A stretch of 63,748 nt of DNA, filler included, from Sphacelaria rigidula (GCA_964200075.2; 6 parts of 6 records of this genome joined end to end with filler, not necessarily neighbours in it), one strand, 5' to 3'. Positions 1-53,208 are shown, counted from the first letter of the whole stretch. Notes: a model not told the origin generated them from the sequence alone. Translations and numbers: made by a program.

Positions 1-972
1 GACAATAGATTCGGGACATGGGACATGATATATCATTGCCGTGACAATGGAAGGGCCAATTTGTTTATCGATACATTTTTTGTTGTTGCAATAGGGTCTG
101 AATTGTGGCCACTAATGTTTATTGCCAACCACAATGGGATCTACGACGCGGCTACCAATATATATTGTTGGTCACGATAGGATCTAAATTGTGCCCACCA
201 ATGTCTATTTAGGGTCACAATAGAATCTGAATCGCGACCACCAATGTCTACCGGTGGTCACAATGCAACTTGAATCGCGGCCATCAATATCTATCGCTGA
301 CCACAAAGGTAGCTGAATGGCGTCGATCACTGGCGCTACGTATGCATATTTTTCGATGTATGTTTCCGCCTTGTTCCACAGAGGCTATGGCCAGCTATCG
401 TCTCAGGTCGTTGCGTGTTCATGTGTAAGGGGTATTTCCGTTGGTATCATGAGACCACTGAAGTGAGCAATCTATTTTCCAAAACCGATCGTCGGCGTCA
501 CTGGCTGTCGATAGGTGCTCCCGAGGGCAATCGATTGTTGAGGGCAATGCCCATATTGGTAGATACAGAAAAATGCCTTGGCATTTTTCGGCGGTAGAAG
601 CTACCGATAGACGGCTCACCAAATCTATTGATGGCGGTAATAGCTATGGATGGATAACTCACTTCATCTATTGATGACGGCAATGGCTATCGATGGGTGG
701 CTCACCAAACCTATTGATAACGGCAATGTCTATCGATATATACAACCCAAAATATATTGCGGTACACCATTTCCATCGATGGCGAGTGATGTTTATCTAT
801 TGTGATTGCCATAGGCTATCGATCGACTATTGCAACATTATCTATTGCTCCTTGCAATACACGTCAATATATATGTTTCACCATCTATCGTGTTCGATAA
901 GATATATCGATAGCTTTTTCCCCGTGTCTATTGCTGAAGCAATGAACTATTATTGTGTTCATTGTCCAGGGT
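1..972. mobile_element. Non-autonomous DNA-transposon-like element with 43-bp subterminal repeat arrays
   Basis: Degenerate 43-bp units start at 89, 132, 175, 218, 261 and 304. A second 43-bp array has units at about 613, 656, 699 and 742. The right end ATTGTCCAGGGT (961-972) is the reverse complement of ACCCTGGACAAT, and the contig begins GACAAT, as if just inside the left terminus. Confidence 0.5.
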
Positions 973-1104
973 TTGAAATCTTTCCCATCGCCAAGCCGAG
1001 GAGAGAAGTCACAGACGTGACACGACCAACATGGAAATATGTTTTTTGATGGCGATGGATTGGCTCGTTGATTTGATCTCCATTAGTGTTCTGGACATGA
1101 ACCT

Positions 1105-4100
1105 AACCTCAGTGCTATTGGTCCCTCTGACATAGCGACGCGTAGTGATCCCGGCTGCGCTTTTGCCTGTTGCGTAGTACAGCGGCACTCCGTTGGGTTG
1201 CTGAGGCAGCCAGCTTCGACGTGCTTGCGGAGGAGGTTGGTGACCTCCATTGCTTTTGGTCGAAGGAGAAGTTCTCCCGATTTCGCGTCGATCACGTTCC
1301 GGAATTGGTCGATCACTGAATCGAAACGTGCCGACAAACGTTCCCGGTTTGGTACCAACCGCCGGCAGTTCCGCAGACAAAAGGTCCAGTTTTTTCCCTT
1401 GTAAGTTGCCACCTCCTCCGGTTTCATGCCTTGCGCTTTCAGAGCTAACTCAACCTGTCATCACCGAACAGATATCTAGGTCAGAAACGAAATCGGAACG
1501 ACCGTAGTGGTTGCAATGCAAGCTTCAGCACACCGCCGGAACTCATATATGCACAAAGTTAAAATCCTCTCAAAAGTCACTCACGCGACCAACAGTAGAC
1601 GTAATGTCAACAACACTTGACTCTTTGATGTCGGCTAGATTTACGATAAAGCAAGCGTCTCTCAATCGAGCCATGAAGGGCCTAAAGGCACCATGGCTCT
1701 TTTTCAGCAGGCGCGACAGACGCTGAAGTGCGTGAAAGATGTCGAGGCGAACCTTGAGCATGCGCCTCCTTTCCTGCGAAAATTGGAGGAATACGACTAA
1801 CGTTGAATAACGGCAGTGGCAGTACACCGACGATTGGCGTCTGCAGGTAACAACCTTCAGGGACAACAGTGATGTTCACTTAAAAAAATCGCTTTCTACC
1901 TTCGCAGCACTGGTATCTCGGTCCATGTTGATATCACCATTGCTGTCGTCCACGGCTCCCGTGTGGCAAGCACGGCGCCTAAGACCGAGGTCACCGTCAT
2001 CATGCCCATCGCTGTCCTCTCCGTCCTCATCCAAGTCTTCGTCATCTACAGGGAGAACCATGCAAATAAGTTAGGTTTGGTTTATACGATATCGTTGTCA
2101 ACAAAGCGCCGAGTACCCAAAATGCAAGGGTTTCACAAACTATCACAACGCCATCACAGAAGGGGGCAAGATCTTACCTGGCGAGCGCACGACATGGTGA
2201 GGTGGATCAGCAGCGAAGAACTCGGCGTCATCATCGTAAGCGGTGCTTGCACTCTTAGTTGCCGAAGGTGCCGGTGTCGGAGGACGTGGTGTCAAACCCC
2301 TCGCGAGGCGAACATGGGCAAGACTGTCGCCATCGCTCTCGAAGACGTCTTTCAACGTCACACGTTTCACACCGGAGACAGAAGGTGCGTTTTTGTGCGG
2401 AATGAATGCAGCGGGCACGAGCGCCTCGATCAGTTTGGCTACGATAACACCTTTCTTCAACCGTTGCCAGGATCTACGGCGCCACCGACACAGAGCTTCC
2501 TCGTCACCCTGCACCTCCCCAAGACCAACACAATTGGCATGGTTGTTGCTGTAGAGACGCACCCATTAAAACAGCAGGATACAACACACAATTTGCCGGC
2601 GGGATAGCAGTATCTCTTGCGAGCGATCGTGATGTACATCCTACATGATGGAACGGCGCAAGCAAACAGCTTCGGCGCGCCTGATACAAACACGGCATTC
2701 GCACCTTTGTTCCCACTCGGCAGCGTCGTCGGTGCGGGGGTGCGTATGGGGTCTTTCAGTCTCTCGATTTTCTTGTACACGGGCACGGACGCGTACGCGT
2801 CTAGGCACGCACACTGCACCTGTGACCATGAGAAGAGCGTGGTTCATCATGAGAACATGAACAAAATAGCAAGTTGAAAAGCACCACGCAAACAACTAAG
2901 CAGTGATGAGAAGGATACCACAAGAAAATCGTTGCAGGCGCAAAAGCAACGCGCAGAGCTTCCTGAATCCCATCTGCTCACTTGTGAGGGAACCGCTGCT
3001 CCATCGAGAGAAGCGGATGGTCGGATCTTTAGGGAGTTCTTTCCCAATTAAAGCACCCGTCATGCCCGCCAGCGAACGAGACGGCGTCTCCACCCAACAC
3101 TCTCTTGCGTGAGTCCTCACGTCTACGGTGTTGGCGACGTCGACGCCATGGTCTCCCTCCAAAAGAGAAGCATCAGAATTCGCATTTACACCGACCTGGA
3201 GATGAGCGGAAGCGGCAGACTGCATGAGTAACGCACACGCACCTCATTTGTACCTCAGTACTTTGAAAATAGGCATCACTAACCATACCTTTGCGATGGA
3301 AGGTTCTTCCAGAAGTTGTCGCAAGGCAGCGGGGAAGTTCGACGGGGTGGTTCGATTTTGCCCACGTTGAAGATGAAAGCAGTAGGCGGTGCCATCAGGA
3401 AGCGACAGCTGGACAGTTGAGACAGGATTTGGTGTCGCGCCGCCGAGCGCTGGCTCCCATTCGCAGTCGAATCCCAAAACATTCCCCTGCACAGCGCAGC
3501 CTTTGGCAAGCTGAGGAACCGCCAAAGAGATGGCGCTTGCTCCCGGTGCCAGATCCCAAACGTACTTGCCACGCGCGGGCGAGGGGAATGAGAGTTCAGG
3601 TACAGTAGCCTCTTCATTTACGCTATCGGCGTCAGCAGTATTGTACAAACGGACACCAGTTTCCTCCAGTATCTCTTGAAACATCGCGAGGAGCAGTCCC
3701 CGATCCTCGCAATATTTGTCTGCGACGCGAAAACATATACAATGGATGAAGAGGCAAAACTTCGCGGTGGGATAATCTACACTATGAACAACCAAGCCTG
3801 CTCATCGAAGACAATCTGTTTTCTTCGAAACACGTGTCGTACCTGTGAAAAGGATCACTGGGACTTCAAAGCCATGACCCACGAAGCGCTTGATAAACAT
3901 CATTCTAAGATCATTCTTGAGATCGTAGATTGATCCAGTCTTTATGGCCTTTGAAAATACAACCTAGAATACGGGAAAAGCAGCCGAGGGAGCCAGCGGG
4001 GGAGGGTTGAGAGTGAGACCTCGACCGAAAAAATGGGTCAAGAAAAAAGGAGCTGTGCATCAATTGGTTGATAACAAAAAATTGCAAATCGTAACCACGT

Positions 4101-6720
4101 CGCGTTGACATGAACGGCATTTCCCCCCACCTTGTCGTACTCGTTCATGATGGTGAATATCCCGTACACGGGCCGCGCGCGTGTCCCATCTGGTCCTGTG
4201 GGCAATCGGATTACCTTGGCGTAGTTGGAGGAAGCATCGCCTGCCAGCAGCCGATCGTCGACTAACTGAGCTCGACGCTGCAGATATTCTTCACGCGTCC
4301 ACGCCTGTCCATCATCCTGACATGATACCAATCCGAGGGAATAAACAGAAGTCATGGCCACTAGCAGCACTAGCACTATTGATTCGTCCTTACCCACACC
4401 GTCTGCTGTTCCTGTCACATTCATACAGCCAAACTACGCGTACACCAAAATCTGCTAATATTTCACTTCTCCGCACCTGTATGATGGGAATTTCGTAAAA
4501 CGATTTGTGCCAGATGTCCCGCACATAGTGAGCGGATGGATGACTGCTGTTGAACCCGACAGGGTCTCCGATACACCCAAACCTTGCGATAGTAGGGCCG
4601 ACGTCAAAATCTTGCCCCCGCAAACCCTTGAGTTGAGACACACGGCGATTGGCTAGCGATACGTACGAACGGAAGAGTTTGAAGTACGTTGCAGAGTATG
4701 CCCTTTCAAGAGAGTTTGAAGTCGCCGAAAAGCCTTTCCCCTCGAGGAGATCATCCGCTAAACGGTTAACCACGGTCATACATATGGCGGCTTTCTTGGT
4801 CAGGACGAACGGGAATTCCTCAGACACGAAGTCGTTCATCCTCGCCAAAACGTCGGCATCCCATGCATTGACCGTGGTGGTTGTACGCTGATCTTTCTGC
4901 TTCGTCGTGTTGGTATCGACACACCGCTTGCAATAGTACCTGTTACAAAAGCGCGAGTTCAGCACCGAGCACGAGCGATACTCAACTGCAAGTACTTTGA
5001 AAAAATCTACCGACCGCGGTTGGAAAACAAAACACCTCACATGCAGCACTTTTATGCGGAGACCAACAGTGACATATTTCTTCGGCAGCGATGGATGTAC
5101 TCATGTTCAGAGCGCGACATGTGTTGGAAATCTCGTAGTTGAGAATTTGAGGCTCGTTTTTATTATATTTGAGAATGCACGGGTAAGCATTCGTGCTGAA
5201 CTCAAGGGTAAATAAGAATGATAAATCTAAAAGTGCCAGGGGGTCGGTAGGGAAGAATCCACAAGAATGCAGTACACATCAAAATAATTACAAATTGCCT
5301 TCACAATCACCACGGCTACATCAGGCCCTCAAACAAGCTGCCTCCTCTCTTAAACTGGCAAACATTCATATCTACTGGGACACCCGATGGATAATGACAA
5401 CCTGTCCAAAACTCGTACAGTAATGTATTTTGTTCCGATTCGTCTTTCGGAACAAGACAGATTTACGTACTGCTTACTGCTGGCGCACGGCACAGTACTG
5501 TACCTGCAATCTCTTTTGGCAGAGGATAAGAGTAGGGGGTACCTTGGATGCCCCCTTCTCCTATACCTGTGCAAAATAAGAATTTCAAAATTAAGCATTT
5601 GGCGTTTTCACCTCTTCGAACAATGAGAAATCGGATTTACGCATTTCTGCTGAAATGGGAAATAAGACGCCGAGCCAAGCTCCAAGTAAGAGTTTCTCAA
5701 CATATGTCGCGCTTTGTACTCGAAAGTATATGAACAGCAGTGTGGGCAGGTCCACCTGAATCCGATCATGTCGCAGATATCGTCCTCCAAAAAGACTCGG
5801 CGTGGTTCACAATTCCACCCATCCGGAGGCCCACGCCCGCCACAATGCGGGCAGGGGATATACTCGATCTCATCCCAGATGTACTCAGGCACCCACGTGA
5901 ACACCTTCTTCGGGTATAACGGCTCCACGCATGGTAGACCTGTAACGATCAGGAGTCCCGTATGTTACTGAAAATATCATCCCTACGGGGTATACCACCC
6001 CGTCACCAAGTGATACGTTTTGCGCATGATCTGCACCATGTGCCATGTGCCACAGACAGTAGGACACCTTCAAGTTCTACTACTGTAAAGTTTTTACCAG
6101 TCCGCGGCAGAGCCACTCACCTCCGCCTTTCTGTAGTGAGGGAACAGGAGGGTACGCCCATCCGCCAATGTAGAGGGATACTCCGACATCCGCCAGACTC
6201 CCCCGTTCTCGTGCTTCGTAGATGATTTTATATTGATCTTGATCTCCTCGATGAATTGGCGCTGAGGTGAAGCGTTCGAGGTGCAGTGGCCGCTGCCGCT
6301 GCTGCTGCTGGTGGTGTCTGACGAAGTCATGCTTGGTTGCGGTGCGTTGTTAGTCCTCGCGGATCCATTACCACTTCTCCCACCATCACGACCACTGACA
6401 TTACTGGTGTTTGGGTCACTCGGCGATGGTAGGCTTGCACCTGCGGATGACCTCCCAGCACTCGGCGATAGTGCGCCACCTGTCGACGCGCGAGACTCGG
6501 AATCTTTCCTGAACATGGTGGTAATTTTTCGGGTGTCCTTGACCGCTGCTTCGGCCAAGGCGGTCCTTGCATTTCTGCCTGACTTCAACGCCGTAGGCTT
6601 GTTCGTGCTCCCTACGGGACGCCTTCGCTTTCTGCCGACCTCCCTCGTTGTTACTGTAGCCTCCGACCTCCTCGACCTCTACCGTGCACGTTCAGCTTGC
6701 TGTTGTGCTGGGAGGGCTAT
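1105..6720 (-). pseudogene. Decayed spliced DDE transposase (MULE/ISL3-like motif order, DUF6729-like N-terminus) with an inserted DEDDy 3'-5' exonuclease
   Basis: Minus-strand exons give, in order: RKRRRPVGSTNK (AT-hook-like, ~6600-6635); FTWVP..CPHC..RRVF (5755-5930); YYCKRC..AWDADVL..FPFVLT (4477-4940); LLAGDAS..FTIMNEY (4131-4316); ILFT|DKYCEDR (spliced ~3844/3719); GFDCEW (~3460); VNANSDASLL (~3170); CACLDAY (~2800); VRLDIFH (~1740); GCLSNP..PLYY..RGTNSTE (1105-1215). Lesions are an in-frame TAG near 6680, a frameshift near 1195 and eroded splice sites. Confidence 0.8.
2770..3500 (-). other. WRN/EXD-like DEDDy 3'-5' exonuclease domain embedded in the transposase
   Basis: ExoI is VLGFDCEW followed by VSTVQLS and FPAALRQLLE. 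ExoII is VGVNANSDASLL. SLAGMTGALIGKELPKD..RFSRWS..LTSEQ follows. ExoIII is VQCACLDAYAS, where the canonical YAxxDA has Tyr changed to Cys. Confidence 0.85.
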
Positions 6721-7839
6721 TCCTCCCCGAGGGTTGTAGGGGTTTGGCACGGTGACGGAGGGGACCGGTGTTGGCGCTGCTTGCGCGATACCAAACATTG
6801 CTGGATACAGACAGACAAACAGCGGTCAATATCGCTCGACTGGCTGGGCCAGATCCCGTGCTCCGATGAAAGGAGCAACCCACAGCACAGCGCAGGTGTA
6901 CTGCATCGCTAGGGTACTGATCGCACGCGGAAGCATACAGACCGCTGTTGCTGACGTGTGCCAGGGCTCGCCGCCACGGCATGATGTAAGCGCCCTTGCC
7001 AAGGTAGGCATATATCGAAACACGAGCATCACCTGGACCCTTGCGGCAGGAGTGTACCACTCGCTGTCTGCTCGTGTGCTTGCTACTTCGTTTCTCTGTG
7101 CTCCGTCCGTCCCGGCGCGACACAGCGAACTGTCTGTAGTACGTACACCTTGAGGCGACTTGAGTCTGCGAGCCAATCAAAAGCATGGTTCACTACATAA
7201 ATCACTACGAAGGTCCCATTTCATTGGCGCTAAATTCCGCCGTATTCTTGCTGGATGGCCTCTGATTGGTTGAATTTCCCATTTCACTACATAAATATAT
7301 CCCCATGTATGGGCGTTGTGCCAGAGATTCAGGGCAGCAGCGTAGATGAAGACACACACCAGTGGCCACCGCAGAGCCACCGACTAAGGACAGAAGCAAC
7401 AACCGATATGAGCAGACAGGATTCTTCGATTGGCGGCCCTCGACGCAGCAGCCTCTCGTTTGTGACGACGGTCTGATTCTCGTTCGTCCGTGCGTCGCCA
7501 CGTGTCCTCCAACTCTTACGGTCCTTTTTCGACTCCAATATGCCATTTGCCCACGTTCTTCGCCGCAGTGACCCAATCGTATGCATCGTTTACCTCGACA
7601 CCGTAGACGGACAATTTCCGTTGGGATCCTTTGTGCGGGACAGCCCCTAGTGCACGTAGGTTCTCCTGGAGGTTATCCTCTCATTGCTTGGGGAGGCGGC
7701 TGGTCTCCTTGGGCCCTCGTGTGGTTCACCAGGCAGACCTCAAATCGGCGCCTGCGACTCCGATTCCAACAGTGCAGTGCGATGGGGTGGATGGGTTTTT
7801 GGCTGTGTTGGGGGGTTTTGGCCACCGGCAGACAACATG

Positions 7840-7935: not shown

Positions 7936-8879
7936 GATCGCGAAGGATGCTGCTCCCTCTAGCAAACAAAGAGAAAATCCTCTACACATGCTGTTTTGGT
8001 CCTTCTCCGTCGTTTTTAAGGCCGAAAAGAGAGCTAGGCGGAGTTTGATGACTTGCTCTACTCGTTGAGGCGGTTCCAGGGCATCTTTGCGTTCCCCGGT
8101 GGCCACAGTTTTCATTTTGGCCGACCAAGCATTTTTGTCTAAGAACGGTCAAGAGCGGTCAAATCTAGAAGAAAAATGTTTTTCTTGTCTGGACTTGACC
8201 GTCTCTGGACAAAAATACTTGTTTGAAAAAAAAAACTACGGCCACCGGAAAATGCGATCTGGAAGCGCCTTAACGAGTAGAGCACGTCATTCCAAGGTGT
8301 TAAACTCCGTCGATCTCTCTTATAGGACGTAAAACGACGAAGAAGGACCAAAACAGCATTTTTACAGGACTTTTTTTCATTTGCTATAAGGGGCGGCCTG
8401 AGACCGACTCTAATGGGACCCGTTCCGATTATGTTTCTCAAAAATTTTGAACAGGTGGTCATAAAACCGACCACTATGAAACAAAATCGTCAAGATTTCG
8501 ACCTCCTAAATTCTGAACGGACCCAAAAAAATTCAAAATTTTGGCCAAACGTTCAGAATTGGGGGACGATTCTGAACGCTTGAGGACCTGTTCAAAAGTT
8601 GGCACAAGAAGTAAAATGAGACATGTCATGTTTTGTTGTACAAGAGCACACGCAGACGACCTGCGGCTCTCTCATGTGCTGCACCTATCACTGCATAATC
8701 GGTCAAACCTTGCCAAACTTGTCTACTGTAGTCTCTACTGGATTACCTGAGCTGCTGTACTACTATCGCATTCCGAACAACTGCTGTTGGAAGGCAGTGC
8801 TGTCTTGTCCAAGTTGAAAATGCGATGCTATTGACGCGAAGTTTTAAAATTTAACGTCACGTGGCTGTTCATAGGCGCC

Positions 8880-10542: not shown

Positions 10543-10642
10543 NNNNNNNNNNNNNNNNNNNNNNNNNNNNNNNNNNNNNNNNNNNNTTAATTAATTAANN
10601 NNNNNNNNNNNNNNNNNNNNNNNNNNNNNNNNNNNNNNNNNN
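10543..10642. other. Artificial contig linker N44-TTAATTAATTAA-N44
   Basis: 100-nt spacer with stop codons in all six frames; five identical copies in the window. Confidence 0.98.
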
Positions 10643-21184: not shown

Positions 21185-21284
21185 NNNNNNNNNNNNNNNN
21201 NNNNNNNNNNNNNNNNNNNNNNNNNNNNTTAATTAATTAANNNNNNNNNNNNNNNNNNNNNNNNNNNNNNNNNNNNNNNNNNNN
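21185..21284. other. Artificial contig linker
   Basis: N44-TTAATTAATTAA-N44. Confidence 0.98.
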
Positions 21285-21335: not shown

Positions 21336-24300
21336 TGAAATGTCCAGCATCAGCTTCTGATTGGCAAGCGCTTTCTTCTTCATCTCCACCAGCTCGTCCT
21401 TCAAGGAGCGAATTAGCTGCGGGGTCCAGATGCGTCATGTGCGGGGCATGGAAACCATCGAGTCGGCAAAGGAGCAGAGAGCGAGAGCGATGAGAAACGA
21501 ATTGCACTATGGATCTTTGGGTGTACTCATGATCATGCATTTGGATCTATGGATCTTTGGGGGGGGGGGGGGGGGCGGGGGGAAGGGGAAGGGCGNNNNN
21601 NNNNNTGGTGGGGGTTGGGTTGGTGAGGTCGGGGGGGGTGGGGGGGGGGGGGGGGGGGGGGGGGGGGCGAGGGGAAGGGCAAGGGCGAGGGAGAGCAGTG
21701 TCAGGGGTCAGCTACCGCCCGTGTGGCTCCCGTGCTTCTTTACCGTTGCGTGACGGTGAGTGGCACTGGTGCGTTGTCTGTCAGCCCCCCTGAATAACCC
21801 ACCCGAGCGGTCATTGTTCGGCTACTTTGGGTATCATGCCGGGACTTACAGCCGTGTACCAGGGCACGTTATATACCACCTCTTCTGCATGTCATCCCCG
21901 TGTGATGTGTTTCCGGGTAGAAATAGCTCATCATCCGGAGGTGGTACGCACTGTGACCCACGGGCCAGTGATGTGATTCGTCGATGTTGGAAGGATTGCC
22001 ACCGGGGGGAATTGTGTGCGGAGATGTGCGTGCATGGCTGCGTGCGTCGCCTGACGAACATCGTCCCGTGCTACTTTGGGCAATATTCTATTGGTGTAAA
22101 CGAACTGTGTGTTCTCTGTTTCTGCTTTGCATCTGTCTGTGCTATTTATTCATGATTCCTCAGGTCACATAGAATCGGGTTCTGGTTCTGTCCATTCCTC
22201 CATTTTTGGGGGGGTCATATTTGTGACTTTCATTTTTTCGCTGTTTTCAAGAAGAAGCATTCAGTTGTCTGGCGATTACCTTGAGGTTGTCGTTCGTGAT
22301 GTCGTTGTAGTATGCCTTCATCTGACCGAACGCCTTTTCGTGGTTCTTCATGAGATCGTTGATGTGCAGATTCTTCCTCTCCTCTATCTCGTGGATGTCC
22401 ACCTGCTCCACACCCCAGAACAGATCAGAAACACTGGGGCTCAGTATAGAACAGAATTCCTTACGGGGCTTTCAGTCACGTCTCTAGGTTCCCAACGTGT
22501 GTACATGGTGCTTTTCACGTGCGTAGGGTATGAAACTCAGCGACTCATAGCGAGTTGATTGTAGAGATCTCAGGTGTGGTGAGAATGTGTACTTATTCTC
22601 AGGAGAGGGTTTCAGCGCCTAGATATTGTCCCCGTTTTAGATGGCCGACAAGGAGACGGAGATGCTACATCGCGTGCCAGTAGCATCGATTTATCGAACC
22701 GCACCATGCGAGGGTGCCACGTCGCGGTCTACGTCGGGTCACTCGCAATAAAAACGCCACCCCTCGCTCAAACCCCCAACTGGTAGCAGGATGTCGTCGA
22801 TTCTTGACCCCTCTGTCAACGCGAGTCGAGATCTGGACTCCTATCCCTGCTATCCAATAGGCGTATACCGTGGATCCTACACCCACTTCCTCCGTACTTC
22901 TTGGTCTCAGTCTTCAGCGCTATCATCACTACAGGTGCATAAGGATAGCATGGGGTACTGGATCCTGTGTACTAACCTCCTACCTTTCTCCGTAGTTCTA
23001 GGTCATCCTCCAGTGCGGCCACGCGCGCGTCACAGCGTTCCCTAAGCTCTGTTAAATTGGCGTCGAAGCCCTCCCTCATCTTTGTCAAAGTTTTCCCGTG
23101 CGCTTTCTTCAACTGCCATTTTTTGTTCCAATCACGAGACACATATAGCACAGGGGGCGTGCCACATGGTCAGTATGGAGTCTAGCACAGTCTGTTTTCA
23201 ATAAAAAAAGAGGAAGCACGTTTGGGACCCTTGCTGGATTTTGGCCGTGCTGTACTTCGTGATCGACTGTACAAGAAAAAAAAATCGGGAACACGTGGAC
23301 AGCACCACGACTATCATACAAAAAGTGAAGGTGAGCGTGTTCTAACAAGTTGTTTCTCCTGTAACTTGTCCCTCACAATGTTCCTCAACATGTCACAATC
23401 TTCAGAGCCCATGTCATCGTACCTCTCTTCTGAGCAACAAGATTGCACCGTAACGTTTGTGTTCTAGTTCTACCCACCAACCTGAGCAACTTCTTCGGCG
23501 TTGAGTAGGTACCGCTCTTCCACTTCGCTTTTTATGTCTTTCTTCCCTCGATTCAGCTCGGAACTTCGTTGCCTAGAAAAGCGAAGTCAGACGCAGTTGA
23601 TTGATTTGAATGGTTGAATTTCTCGCAATGATCGATCTGCTACGAGTTCAGCGGTAGCCACAAGGTAAATACTCACCACGTAATGAAGTTGTGCTTGAAA
23701 GTGAGGGGGAAAAAAGCACCTTGCGTCTAAAACCTAGCATGCAATGTGTAGAACTTGCCTACGTGACCCCACGAAAAAACAAAAAAACGAAAAAGACGTA
23801 TCTATGATTCTTCTCCAAGACGACGCTACCCGCAAGGGGTGTATTGATGTATATTTGACACAGAACCATTCGAAGCCAAGGTACAGAGCGCACGAGTTCT
23901 TACTGGCAACATCCAGCATACAGGATTATTTGGAACAACACAAAAAAAAACACCGCAAAGTTGAACCTCTGCCTTGGCAGTCAAATAGCCGTATACGTTC
24001 AGGTGTCTGAGTCGTCTCTCACCCGTGCAAGTCTGACTCTGACGTCAAGAGGCGATCTTCGCTCATGTTGATGGTCTTGATATTGTTCTGATGCTCGTAC
24101 TCCAAGTGCTTCACCTTCTGCACGTACACCCTGACCTCTACCCTGCACCAATGGCCGGTTCGTTCACGCGTCATTCGTGTTCACGTTAGCGACGACTCTT
24201 GCGGCGTGGCCGCGAAATAGACGGAGGGAAGGCGAGGAAATGATGCTCGGAGGTTCAGATGATAGCTCTAGAAATTACCGAGTGTATTTTTGCCTGGAGG

Positions 24301-31826: not shown

Positions 31827-31926
31827 NNNNNNNNNNNNNNNNNNNNNNNNNNNNNNNNNNNNNNNNNNNNTTAATTAATTAANNNNNNNNNNNNNNNNNN
31901 NNNNNNNNNNNNNNNNNNNNNNNNNN
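31827..31926. other. Artificial contig linker
   Basis: N44-TTAATTAATTAA-N44. Confidence 0.98.
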
Positions 31927-42467: not shown

Positions 42468-42567
42468 NNNNNNNNNNNNNNNNNNNNNNNNNNNNNNNNN
42501 NNNNNNNNNNNTTAATTAATTAANNNNNNNNNNNNNNNNNNNNNNNNNNNNNNNNNNNNNNNNNNNN
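42468..42567. other. Artificial contig linker
   Basis: N44-TTAATTAATTAA-N44. Confidence 0.98.
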
Positions 42568-53108: not shown

Positions 53109-53208
53109 NNNNNNNNNNNNNNNNNNNNNNNNNNNNNNNNNNNNNNNNNNNNTTAATTAATTAANNNNNNNNNNNNNNNNNNNNNNNNNNNNNNNNNNNN
53201 NNNNNNNN
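53109..53208. other. Artificial contig linker
   Basis: N44-TTAATTAATTAA-N44. Confidence 0.98.

Follow-up and report, generated by a model that had tools for sequence, protein, structure and literature searches.

A Degenerate, Probably Dada-Type Transposon Copy with a WRN-Like Exonuclease inside Its Transposase Core in the Brown Alga Sphacelaria rigidula

The window analysed, a stretch of 63,748 nucleotides from the brown alga Sphacelaria rigidula (GCA_964200075.2), contains at 1003-~6800 what is in all probability (about 0.9) a decayed copy, truncated at its 3' end, of a DNA transposon from the Dada superfamily, belonging to the exonuclease-bearing lineage of Dada-1_ES. The membership in Dada is regarded as very probable on the basis of motifs, spacings, host group and agreement with the description in print, rather than of an alignment to the Repbase sequences. 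The transposon family is not new. The original prediction had described a poorly characterised family for which no named superfamily could be confirmed, while allowing for a match to a family already described; the novelty had to be given up, since the superfamily was named Dada by Kojima and Jurka in 2013 and the same architecture was printed there (PMC3706591). Dada is a Repbase family name, and the exonuclease-bearing lineage was first reported from Ectocarpus, with the element Dada-1_ES (PMC3706591).

As published, Dada combines a DDE triad and its DxxH with two zinc fingers, CCCC near the N-terminus and CCHC near the C-terminus; in the elements from Ectocarpus and Laccaria, a DEDDy exonuclease is located between the second D and DxxH (PMC3706591). 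Both this insertion point and the same suggested role of the exonuclease were already in print in 2013, for a brown alga. The window copy itself, a dead member of a named superfamily whose unusual feature has been known since that year, offers little to gain.

Gene Structure and the Zinc Finger Region

The gene is encoded on the minus strand and consists of multiple exons, with coding parts at 1108-6678 (Table 1). The order of its parts is the split zinc finger with DUF6729, the first catalytic Asp (D1), the second (D2), a WRN-like 3'-5' exonuclease, a beta-rich module, an acidic linker, DxxH and RGTNSTE. Reading of the translations placed all motifs of the original prediction on this strand, where they had been reported. 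The exon phases agree at all 11 junctions, with the exception of three indel sites, and 9/11 introns are of the GT-AG type. In the intron containing the nested repeat, the summed contig depth was 710-2004 in the repeat bins versus ~180-340 in the adjoining bins.

Table 1: Features of the transposon copy and its 3' neighbour in the window.
Feature	Position	Strand	Evidence
First coding exon, AT-hook-like basic N-terminus and Ser/Gly-rich stretch	6121..6678	-	tblastn, P0003 and P0005 match frame 1 to ~6175
Exon, CPHC as first half of the N-terminal CCCC zinc finger	5756..5939	-	AG acceptor, GT donor
816-bp intron with nested higher-copy repeat at ~5011-5678	4940..5755	-	Contig depth
Exon, CKRC as second half of the zinc finger and remaining DUF6729	4477..4939	-	PF20499, E 3.2e-5
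Exon, first catalytic Asp (LLAGDAS)	4131..4316	-	Aligns with the xDHSFK/GDASFK family column
Exon, ends with ILFT and the first base of the D2 codon	3843..3963	-	
Exon, completes the D2 codon (DKYCED), followed by exonuclease motif I (GFDCEWE)	3289..3719	-	92% identity to P0006
Exon, exonuclease motif II (VGVNANSD); donor after LTSEQ is AT, not GT	2974..3195	-	
Exon, exonuclease motif III (VQCACLDAYAS, Cys for Tyr); 1-bp insertion at 2717	2705..2819	-	tblastn of P0008
Exon, conserved beta-rich module after the exonuclease; acceptor is GG, not AG	2178..2562	-	82% identity to P0006 residues 229-363
Acidic linker exon (DDEDLDEDGEDSDGHDDGD)	1900..2045	-	
Exon, DxxH motif (LDIFH)	1615..1854	-	tblastn: P0003 80%, P0006 78% identity
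Exon, helical insertion domain, ends with RGTNSTE (catalytic Glu); 1-bp deletion at 1194	1108..1454	-	
Unrelated very-high-copy DNA, 43-bp tandem repeats (TRF)	1..1002	.	Depth jump at ~1003

At the N-terminus, the basic stretch GRKRRRPVG in the ORF 6094-6678 is AT-hook-like, with RRP in the window copy versus GRP in the relatives P0026 and P0005. Removal of the intron 4940-5755 brings CPHC and CKRC together in a C-x2-C-x31-C-x2-C pattern, corresponding to the N-terminal CCCC finger of Dada. The relative P0100 contains C-x4-C...C-x2-C, the same as the published Dada residues C389/C394/C429/C432 (PMC3706591). The exon at 4477-4939 shows 46-60% identity to the brown-algal proteins P0001-P0004. 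The CCCC zinc finger with DUF6729 presumably acts in DNA-end or target recognition.

The Catalytic Core and the Inserted Exonuclease

The assignment to DDE transposases of the C/DxxH (MULE/IS256-like) kind was borne out, with D1, D2, DxxH and E located in conserved family columns. In an alignment of 58 sequences, each motif of the window falls into a near-invariant column: Asp is present in 24/25 sequences with a residue at D1 and in 35/36 at D2, and the D and H of DxxH together with the catalytic E are kept in 56/56. As predicted, D2 (ILFT|DKYCED) is formed over a splice junction (3843|3719), which splits the Asp codon into G|AC. The triad with DxxH after the second Asp, characteristic of Dada, is therefore present as LLAGDAS, ILFTDKYCED, LDIFH and RGTNSTE.

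By exon arithmetic, the spacings in the window are 76 residues for D1-D2, ~470 for D2-DxxH and 158 for DxxH-E. The relatives show 68-80 residues for D1-D2 (median 70, n=24), 132-489 for D2-DxxH (median 396, in the 36 relatives covering both motifs) and 137-184 for DxxH-E (median 154.5, n=56). For Dada-U6_DR, the catalytic residues D567/D635/E811 were published, corresponding to 68 residues for D1-D2 and 176 for D2-E (PMC3706591). Comparison of the latter value with the median DxxH-E spacing implies that ~22 residues separate D2 from DxxH in exonuclease-free Dada elements.

The exonuclease was confirmed to be inserted between the second Asp and DxxH, as in the Dada-1_ES lineage, with its motifs I-III located between DKYCED and LDIFH; PF01612 matched with E 0.0023 on the ORF 2896-3243, in the motif II region. 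Of the complete DEDDy site that had been predicted, the four acids are present, but the Tyr of motif III is Cys in the window copy. This Tyr is kept in 50/53 relatives and is absent from both brown-algal sequences covering the site, the second one, Ectocarpus P0008, having Ile. Among 14 long relatives scanned with Pfam, PF01612 was identified in 14/14 and DUF6729 in 7/14. A search for exonuclease-free relatives gave just four proteins, and P0192, the sole one of these without a PF01612 call, still begins an exonuclease motif; for the existence of exonuclease-free Dada elements, the present analysis therefore relies on PMC3706591.

Comparison to Dada and Other C/DxxH Transposons

Dada-1_ES and Dada-1_LB/Dada-2_LB have the same DDE triad with DxxH, CCCC finger, placement of the DEDD exonuclease and introns as the window copy (PMC3706591). 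While Dada-1_LB and Dada-2_LB are from Laccaria bicolor, the host of Dada-1_ES, Ectocarpus siliculosus, is a brown alga, like that of the window. The window copy differs in being truncated and frameshifted and in having Cys in place of the motif-III Tyr, and no target gene or TSD is visible. The closest intact relative, P0006, ends with a CCHC-type Cys/His cluster as in Dada. For Dada-U6_DR and other animal Dada elements, which are described without an exonuclease, the D1-D2 spacing of 68 residues compares to 68-80 here, and the zinc-finger layout agrees (PMC3706591).

The members of the C/DxxH group, including ISCth4, MULE/MuDR, hAT, P and Kolobok, have in common an RNase H-like core in which the second Asp is followed by C/DxxH. 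Like the window family, they also contain a helical insertion domain ahead of the Glu and a last motif of the T/N-x-x-E type. However, none of them is known to have a domain between D2 and C/DxxH. In Pfam scans of 33 sequences (10 window ORF pieces and 23 database proteins), no transposase family (MULE, Transposase_mut, DDE_Tnp_ISL3, KDZ) was matched, and PF10551, PF00872 and PF01610 (MULE/IS256/ISL3) gave no match at E<=0.1 or E<=0.01. Of the Pfam families suggested originally as a check, DUF6729 and PF01612 were found, but not MULE or DDE_Tnp_ISL3; the likeness to IS256 transposases, seen with ISCth4, is at the level of the fold only. The inserted domain has the DEDDy DnaQ-like fold common to the WRN exonuclease (PDB 2e6l, 2fbt), EXD2 and Mut-7/Nibbler; in contrast to WRN, it forms part of a transposase and has no RecQ helicase attached.

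The lack of a Pfam transposase match, the reliance on a description in place of a Repbase alignment, and the fact that DUF6729 is named in no paper of the literature searched would be in line with a separate, unnamed C/DxxH superfamily, defined by DUF6729 and the exonuclease, which only resembles the published description. This is very unlikely, however, since the exact architecture is in print for Ectocarpus (PMC3706591) and Ectocarpus siliculosus proteins are among the relatives. In addition, the published residue numbers agree with the pattern of the zinc finger and with the spacings for D1-D2 and D2-E. As a lead only, Atlas look-alikes of the C-terminal core were identified in clusters of Basidiomycota and Chordata, groups with described Dada elements (PMC3706591). 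With the assignment to Dada, Pfam DUF6729 can be equated with the zinc-finger region at the N-terminus of Dada transposases, which may be of use for annotation.

Decay, Copies, and Flanking DNA

The window copy is unable to make the protein, in agreement with the predicted inactivity. Two frameshifts were confirmed against other copies and a third is probable. The base inserted at 2717 is missing in other copies (depth 127/163 in run X1 and 142/142 in X4, one contig each), and its removal restores LPVGTK, the same as in P0006. At 1194, other copies have an extra A behind this position, and the tblastn frame changes at ~1197. At the probable third site, near 6180, the homologous GGWAYPPVPSLQK goes on in another frame, as judged against P0003 and P0004. 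The first exon contains no start codon, with a stop directly upstream at 6679-6681, and two splice sites, the AT donor and the GG acceptor of Table 1, are non-canonical. Everything past the catalytic Glu is lost, comprising the last ~380 codons with the C-terminal CCHC finger, and repeat DNA is found there instead; the C-terminal parts of P0006 and P0026 gave no tblastn match within the whole window (best E 0.62).

Several distinct contigs, 85-95% alike, cover 1003-6680 in two DNA runs, while the window contains just the one copy. No exon-junction joints were found among the 15 joints listed (388 more exist) for the runs X6 and X7, which were guessed to be RNA, a result that is silent on expression; the X6 and X7 contigs are small unspliced pieces only.

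The targets of Dada, in animals as in general, are multicopy small RNA genes (U6, U1, tRNA), with 6-7-bp TSDs, and the elements have no terminal inverted repeats but only short subterminal ones (PMC3706591). For Dada-1_ES, no target is given in that description, nor is one contained in the name. No tRNA or snRNA genes or fragments flank the window copy (ARAGORN; Rfam gathering score; flanks E<=1), so that the hallmark Dada target is not seen, and with the 3' end gone and the 5' end undefined, a TSD is unreadable. Weak miRNA-like Rfam matches at 8065-8272 are far under the gathering score and are located within a foldback repeat.

This absence of visible termini, TSD and target, together with an Ectocarpus relative annotated as 'similar to Werner syndrome protein', could point to a domesticated or single-copy host gene, in which a WRN-like repair nuclease is combined with a former transposase. 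The decay described above, with broken splice sites and a missing 3' third, and the several diverged copies in the DNA runs argue against such a gene. Further, the relatives occur many times per assembly, as exemplified by P0026 on 10 contigs, and the flanks consist of unrelated high-copy repeats. A host gene is thus very unlikely, and the predicted membership in a transposon family was substantiated by the diverged copies and the match to Dada.

A Single Polypeptide and Its Predicted Fold

P0026 and P0036 are unbroken ORFs of 1513-1516 aa on metagenome contigs, and P0177, a 1533-aa ORF from an Amoebidium transcriptome assembly, combines DUF6729 and the exonuclease. Although the motif-III exon is skipped in the gene models P0006 and P0007, and no RNA run is recorded as containing the stretch, an origin of the exonuclease exons from another transcript, or from a gene captured in a transposase intron, is the least probable explanation, since the intron-free P0026 and P0036 carry all domains in one frame, P0177 is likewise joined, the window exon phases fit through the exonuclease, and the AlphaFold2 model of a relative packs both core halves into one predicted ISCth4-like fold. 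Exonuclease and transposase are therefore one protein, as had been proposed.

The AlphaFold2 model was obtained for the relative P0104, not for the window copy (pLDDT 82.7, pTM 0.80). It aligned to the WRN exonuclease with a Z of 27.1 and an rmsd of 1.8 (185/186 residues, 32% identity), and to the IS256-family transposase ISCth4 (PDB 6xg8) with a Z of 11.2 (362/401 residues). The resemblance to ISCth4 is consistent with the RNase H-like core originally suggested as a check. Of the 50 chains that the structure search listed, ISCth4 was the sole transposase, and the alignment covers model residues 33-1011, thus spanning the exonuclease insertion. The rmsd of this match, from a whole-protein model, is high (6.0).

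The beta-rich module comprises strands 719-794 of the model. A family profile run against PDB sequences gave exonucleases only (WRN-type match E 2.1e-53). The Foldseek and VIA listings were also filled by exonucleases, so that they probe neither the transposase part nor the beta-rich module. The confident model of P0104 gives a testable picture, in which the exonuclease would be inserted straight after the D2 strand.

Proposed Protein and Mechanism

When intact, the protein of this lineage comprises ~1,450-1,500 residues in one polypeptide chain. A basic N-terminus is followed by the CCCC finger with DUF6729 and by the first half of the RNase H-like core with the D1 and D2 strands. Right after the D2 strand, the WRN-type DEDDy 3'-5' exonuclease and the small beta-rich module are inserted. 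The acidic linker then leads to the second half of the core, with DxxH, the helical insertion domain and the Glu in RGTxxxEGxH, and to the C-terminal CCHC finger, seen as a C-x2-C...H...C cluster in P0006, P0026 and P0036.

The DDE site would nick the element ends and would join their 3'-OH to staggered target positions; published Dada elements make 6-7-bp duplications by such staggered joining (PMC3706591). The exonuclease may trim 3' ends in the cleaved intermediates, be they those of the element or those of broken DNA from the donor or target, and a 3'-trimming role of the Dada exonuclease is the proposal of Kojima and Jurka (PMC3706591). KolobokD, with a DEDDh exonuclease, and KolobokE, with a lambda-exonuclease-like nuclease, are also C/DxxH transposons with their own exonuclease, for which degradation of DNA intermediates from the 3' end was proposed by the authors (PMC9587614). 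However, these belong to another superfamily, contain other exonuclease classes, and carry the nuclease outside the catalytic core (PMC9587614).

Relatives and Distribution

In the databases, the closest proteins are those of the brown algae Sphacelaria rigidula and Ectocarpus, and the identity of the window exons to brown-algal proteins is 46-92% overall. P0006 from Sphacelaria rigidula, which carries PF01612, is 79-92% identical to the window copy, with 78% in tblastn on the DxxH exon, and a protein from the other brown alga, Ectocarpus, shows ~60% identity on the exonuclease exon. With P0006 as query, phmmer identified 2377 proteins at E<=0.001 and 863 at E<=1e-10. The one-protein architecture is also present in a chytrid, an aphelid, Plasmodiophora, an ichthyosporean transcriptome and metagenomes. 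The exonuclease-bearing form is distributed much more widely than the two hosts of PMC3706591 would suggest.

Tentatively, the exonuclease-bearing Dada elements might represent an old pan-eukaryotic clade (stramenopiles, Rhizaria, chytrids, aphelids, ichthyosporeans and green algae), in which the WRN-like exonuclease with the beta-rich module would be an obligatory second active site in the RNase H core. If so, the chemistry would be unlike that of exonuclease-free Dada elements, for instance through a 3' resection step, acting on ends or hairpin-derived flaps, that precedes strand transfer, and DUF6729 would be the end- or target-binding zinc-finger domain of the clade. In the genomes of several protists and fungi, proteins labelled 'Werner syndrome-like', 'ribonuclease D' or 'SANT domain-containing' are transposases of the Dada type.

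Gene organization of the element

The window is eukaryotic and contains no long open reading frames of bacterial style. On the minus strand, the flagged region was resolved into a gene with 12 or more exons, which were placed by tblastn of database relatives combined with splice sites and codon phase. GT-AG borders were identified for 9 of the 11 introns, and the codon phases agree at all junctions with the exception of three indel sites. The motifs listed in the original prediction were all found at their places, including the second catalytic aspartate, D2 (ILFT/DKYCED), the codon of which is divided over the junction 3843/3719. By exon arithmetic, 76 residues separate D1 from D2 in this copy, about 470 separate D2 from DxxH, and 158 separate DxxH from the Glu of RGTNSTE.

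Exons of the probable Dada copy, in order of transcription
Feature	Coordinates	Strand	Remark
Exon	6121-6678	-	
Exon	5756-5939	-	
Exon	4477-4939	-	carries DUF6729
Exon	4131-4316	-	
Exon	3843-3963	-	
Exon	3289-3719	-	first exonuclease exon
Exon	2974-3195	-	
Exon	2705-2819	-	exonuclease motif III
Exon	2178-2562	-	beta-rich module after exonuclease
Exon	1900-2045	-	
Exon	1615-1854	-	
Exon	1108-1454	-	ends in RGTNSTE; last exon of copy

Probable assignment to the Dada superfamily

The copy very likely belongs to Dada, as judged by the published description. This superfamily was defined by Kojima and Jurka (PLoS One 2013, PMC3706591), who described a DxxH-containing DDE transposase with a distant likeness to MuDR, hAT, P, Kolobok and IS256, encoded by genes which contain introns except in the Perkinsus elements. 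According to the same description, Dada elements are devoid of TIRs, generate TSDs of 6-7 bp and target the genes for U6 or U1 snRNA or for tRNAs; for the Ectocarpus element, no target is named. In Repbase, Dada is one of 20 DDD/E superfamilies and one of the five with a C/DxxH signature (PMC9587614).

The spacing of the catalytic residues can be compared with that of the animal element Dada-U6_DR, for which D567, D635 and E811 are given (PMC3706591), corresponding to 68 residues between D1 and D2 and 176 between D2 and Glu. In the family of the window, D1 and D2 are 68-80 residues apart, compared to 68 in Dada-U6_DR, and DxxH and Glu about 154, which against the 176 of Dada-U6_DR leaves about 22 residues between D2 and DxxH in exonuclease-free Dada.

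The original prediction, a DDE transposase with an inserted WRN-like exonuclease, is supported, and its observation is confirmed. The finding is already known, however: both the exonuclease observation and the interpretation drawn from it were published for a brown alga (PMC3706591). Own exonucleases are also carried by other transposons, KolobokD and KolobokE (PMC9587614). What is added here is modest. Pfam DUF6729 corresponds to the Dada N-terminal zinc-finger region, an equation not found in the literature searched, and the host range of the exonuclease-bearing form is much wider than previously described. The confident structural model of the Plasmodiophora relative P0104 adds to these by-products.

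Relatives and single-protein architecture

When the exon encoding DUF6729 and the first of the exonuclease exons were used as queries, Ectocarpus proteins showed 46-60% identity to the window, and among the brown-algal matches of the same searches P0006, a protein of 995 aa from Sphacelaria rigidula, showed 92%. A phmmer search with P0006 against 1.84 billion representatives yielded 2377 proteins at an E-value cut-off of 0.001, of which 863 remained at 1e-10 and 132 at 1e-30, the conserved block being the DxxH-to-Glu region. When 14 long relatives were scanned with Pfam, DNA_pol_A_exo1 was present in all 14 and DUF6729 in seven (E<=0.01). The hosts include the chytrid Blyttiomyces, the aphelid Amoeboaphelidium, Plasmodiophora brassicae and, from a transcriptome assembly, the ichthyosporean Amoebidium; many other relatives are metagenome contigs of 4-10 kb, each with one unbroken ORF of 1,400-1,500 codons.

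That the exonuclease exons belong to a separate transcript was rejected, since DUF6729 and the exonuclease lie in a single frame of a transcript assembly in the Amoebidium protein P0177 (1533 aa), and since P0026 and P0036, from metagenome contigs, are intron-free ORFs.

In P0192, a protein of 1108 aa from the green alga Prasinocladus malaysianus, DUF6729 is preceded by an N-terminal extension of about 650 residues, and the gene model stops shortly past exonuclease motif I.

Conservation of the catalytic residues

Conservation was tallied per motif column in a family alignment of 58 sequences. Asp is present at D1 in 24 of the 25 sequences having a residue there and at D2 in 35 of 36, while the D and H of DxxH together with the Glu are kept in 56/56. 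In the 36 sequences covering both motifs, D2 and DxxH are 132-489 residues apart (median 396). The exonuclease residues D-E-D-Y-D are unbroken in 40 of the 44 sequences spanning all five positions. A single-protein architecture was shown, and both sets of catalytic residues are conserved across distant eukaryotes.

Two relatives, P0152 and P0115, lack every one of the five catalytic residues of the exonuclease and have kept D1 or D2, DxxH and the Glu; from their sequences, they appear to be family members with a dead exonuclease. This implies that the core can survive the loss of exonuclease activity, at least temporarily.

Of 53 relatives, 50 retain the motif-III Tyr (Y-x3-D), but it is absent from both brown-algal sequences spanning it, being replaced by Cys in the window (exon 2705-2819) and by Ile in the Ectocarpus protein P0008. 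Because of this Cys, the designation of the exonuclease as a complete DEDDy type was slightly too generous for the window copy. The gene models of P0006 and of the relative P0007 omit the motif-III exon entirely.

Predicted structure and mechanism

AlphaFold2 was run on P0104 with the 58-row alignment as input and gave a model with a mean pLDDT of 82.7 and a pTM of 0.80. The predicted order begins with three strands, the first containing D1, a helix, a short strand ending at D2 and long helices, followed by the exonuclease (about residues 514-700) and a beta-rich module (719-794), and ends with a strand immediately before DxxH, a helical region, a hairpin and a helix with the Glu.

The best match among 48,161 PDB representatives was the mouse WRN exonuclease (Z 27.1, rmsd 1.8, 185/186 aligned, 32% identity), and the sequence profile identified WRN in the PDB at E 2.1e-53. 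A single transposase stood among the best 50 PDB rows, the IS256-family enzyme ISCth4 (6xg8_A) at rank 31, with Z 11.2, rmsd 6.0 and 362/401 residues aligned. As model residues 33-1011 are aligned, this match spans the exonuclease insertion. In the Foldseek and VIA searches of the structure, and with the sequence profile in the PDB, the matches listed were all exonucleases. In the model, the insert adopts a WRN-type fold, and the split core has a weaker likeness to the IS256 family; this one middling match from a whole-protein model agrees with the motifs and is not strong alone.

The beta-rich module is conserved family-wide. No fold match was assigned to it in the fold-search lists, which were all filled by exonuclease matches, and it is not mentioned in the relevant passages of PMC3706591.

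By comparison with DDE transposases of the C/DxxH group, the DDE site would cleave the element ends, and the 3'-OH groups of these ends would be transferred to staggered target positions. The exonuclease, like other WRN-type exonucleases, would trim 3' termini of intermediates, at the element ends, the donor break or the target.

Lesions and borders of the window copy

The tblastn match switches frame at about 1197, and contigs of other copies from two DNA runs have an extra A behind 1194, which indicates a 1-bp deletion in the window. At 2717 other copies have one base fewer; dropping this base changes LPSGNK to LPVGTK as in P0006 and restores the phase of exon 2705-2819, which indicates a 1-bp insertion in the window. 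A third frameshift is predicted at about 6180, where the homologous sequence, read against the relatives P0003 and P0004, moves to another frame. The donor after LTSEQ is AT and the acceptor before VRLYS is GG. The first exon lacks a Met ahead of the conserved N-terminal part, and a stop codon occupies 6679-6681.

P0006 continues for about 380 residues past the last exon of the window copy (TE/GYHRYLRR...LLEFNHRWN...) and ends in a Cys/His cluster. These residues had no match anywhere in the window (best E 0.62), the start of which is no more than about 1.1 kb away from the last exon. It is possible that the missing part lies behind a very long intron; against this, the repeat class alters abruptly at about 1003, where the sequence turns into very-high-copy DNA with 43-bp tandem repeats, which argues for loss of the 3' end by truncation. 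The adjoining positions 147-737 consist of degenerate 43-bp tandem repeats in three overlapping TRF arrays, with an extremely high summed contig depth in the DNA runs.

Copy number and neighbouring repeats

Along 1003-6680, several distinct contigs of 85-95% identity were identified in the two DNA runs, three to nine per variant site being common. The summed depth is about 160-370, compared to 17-36 for single exact contigs, and reaches thousands to 100,000 in the flanks, depth not being copy number. This was taken as evidence that several diverged copies exist and that the sequence class changes at about 1003 and 6680-6830. One end of the copy is lost and the other is undefined. The window contains no tRNA genes and no Rfam families at gathering score, and in either flank no Rfam match at E<=1 except chance-level miRNA-like matches in a foldback repeat at 7949-8397.

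In the DNA runs, this palindromic repeat (inverted self-match of 71% over 475 bp) is very high-copy; it is probably a MITE-like element. Paired 44-N blocks every 10,642 bases (10543-10642, 21185-21284, 31827-31926, 42468-42567, 53109-53208), as well as 21596-21605, represent masked or withheld sequence and not biology. Nested within the 816-bp intron that separates the two zinc-finger exons is a segment (5011-5678) with more copies than its Dada surroundings, which is probably a small repeat.
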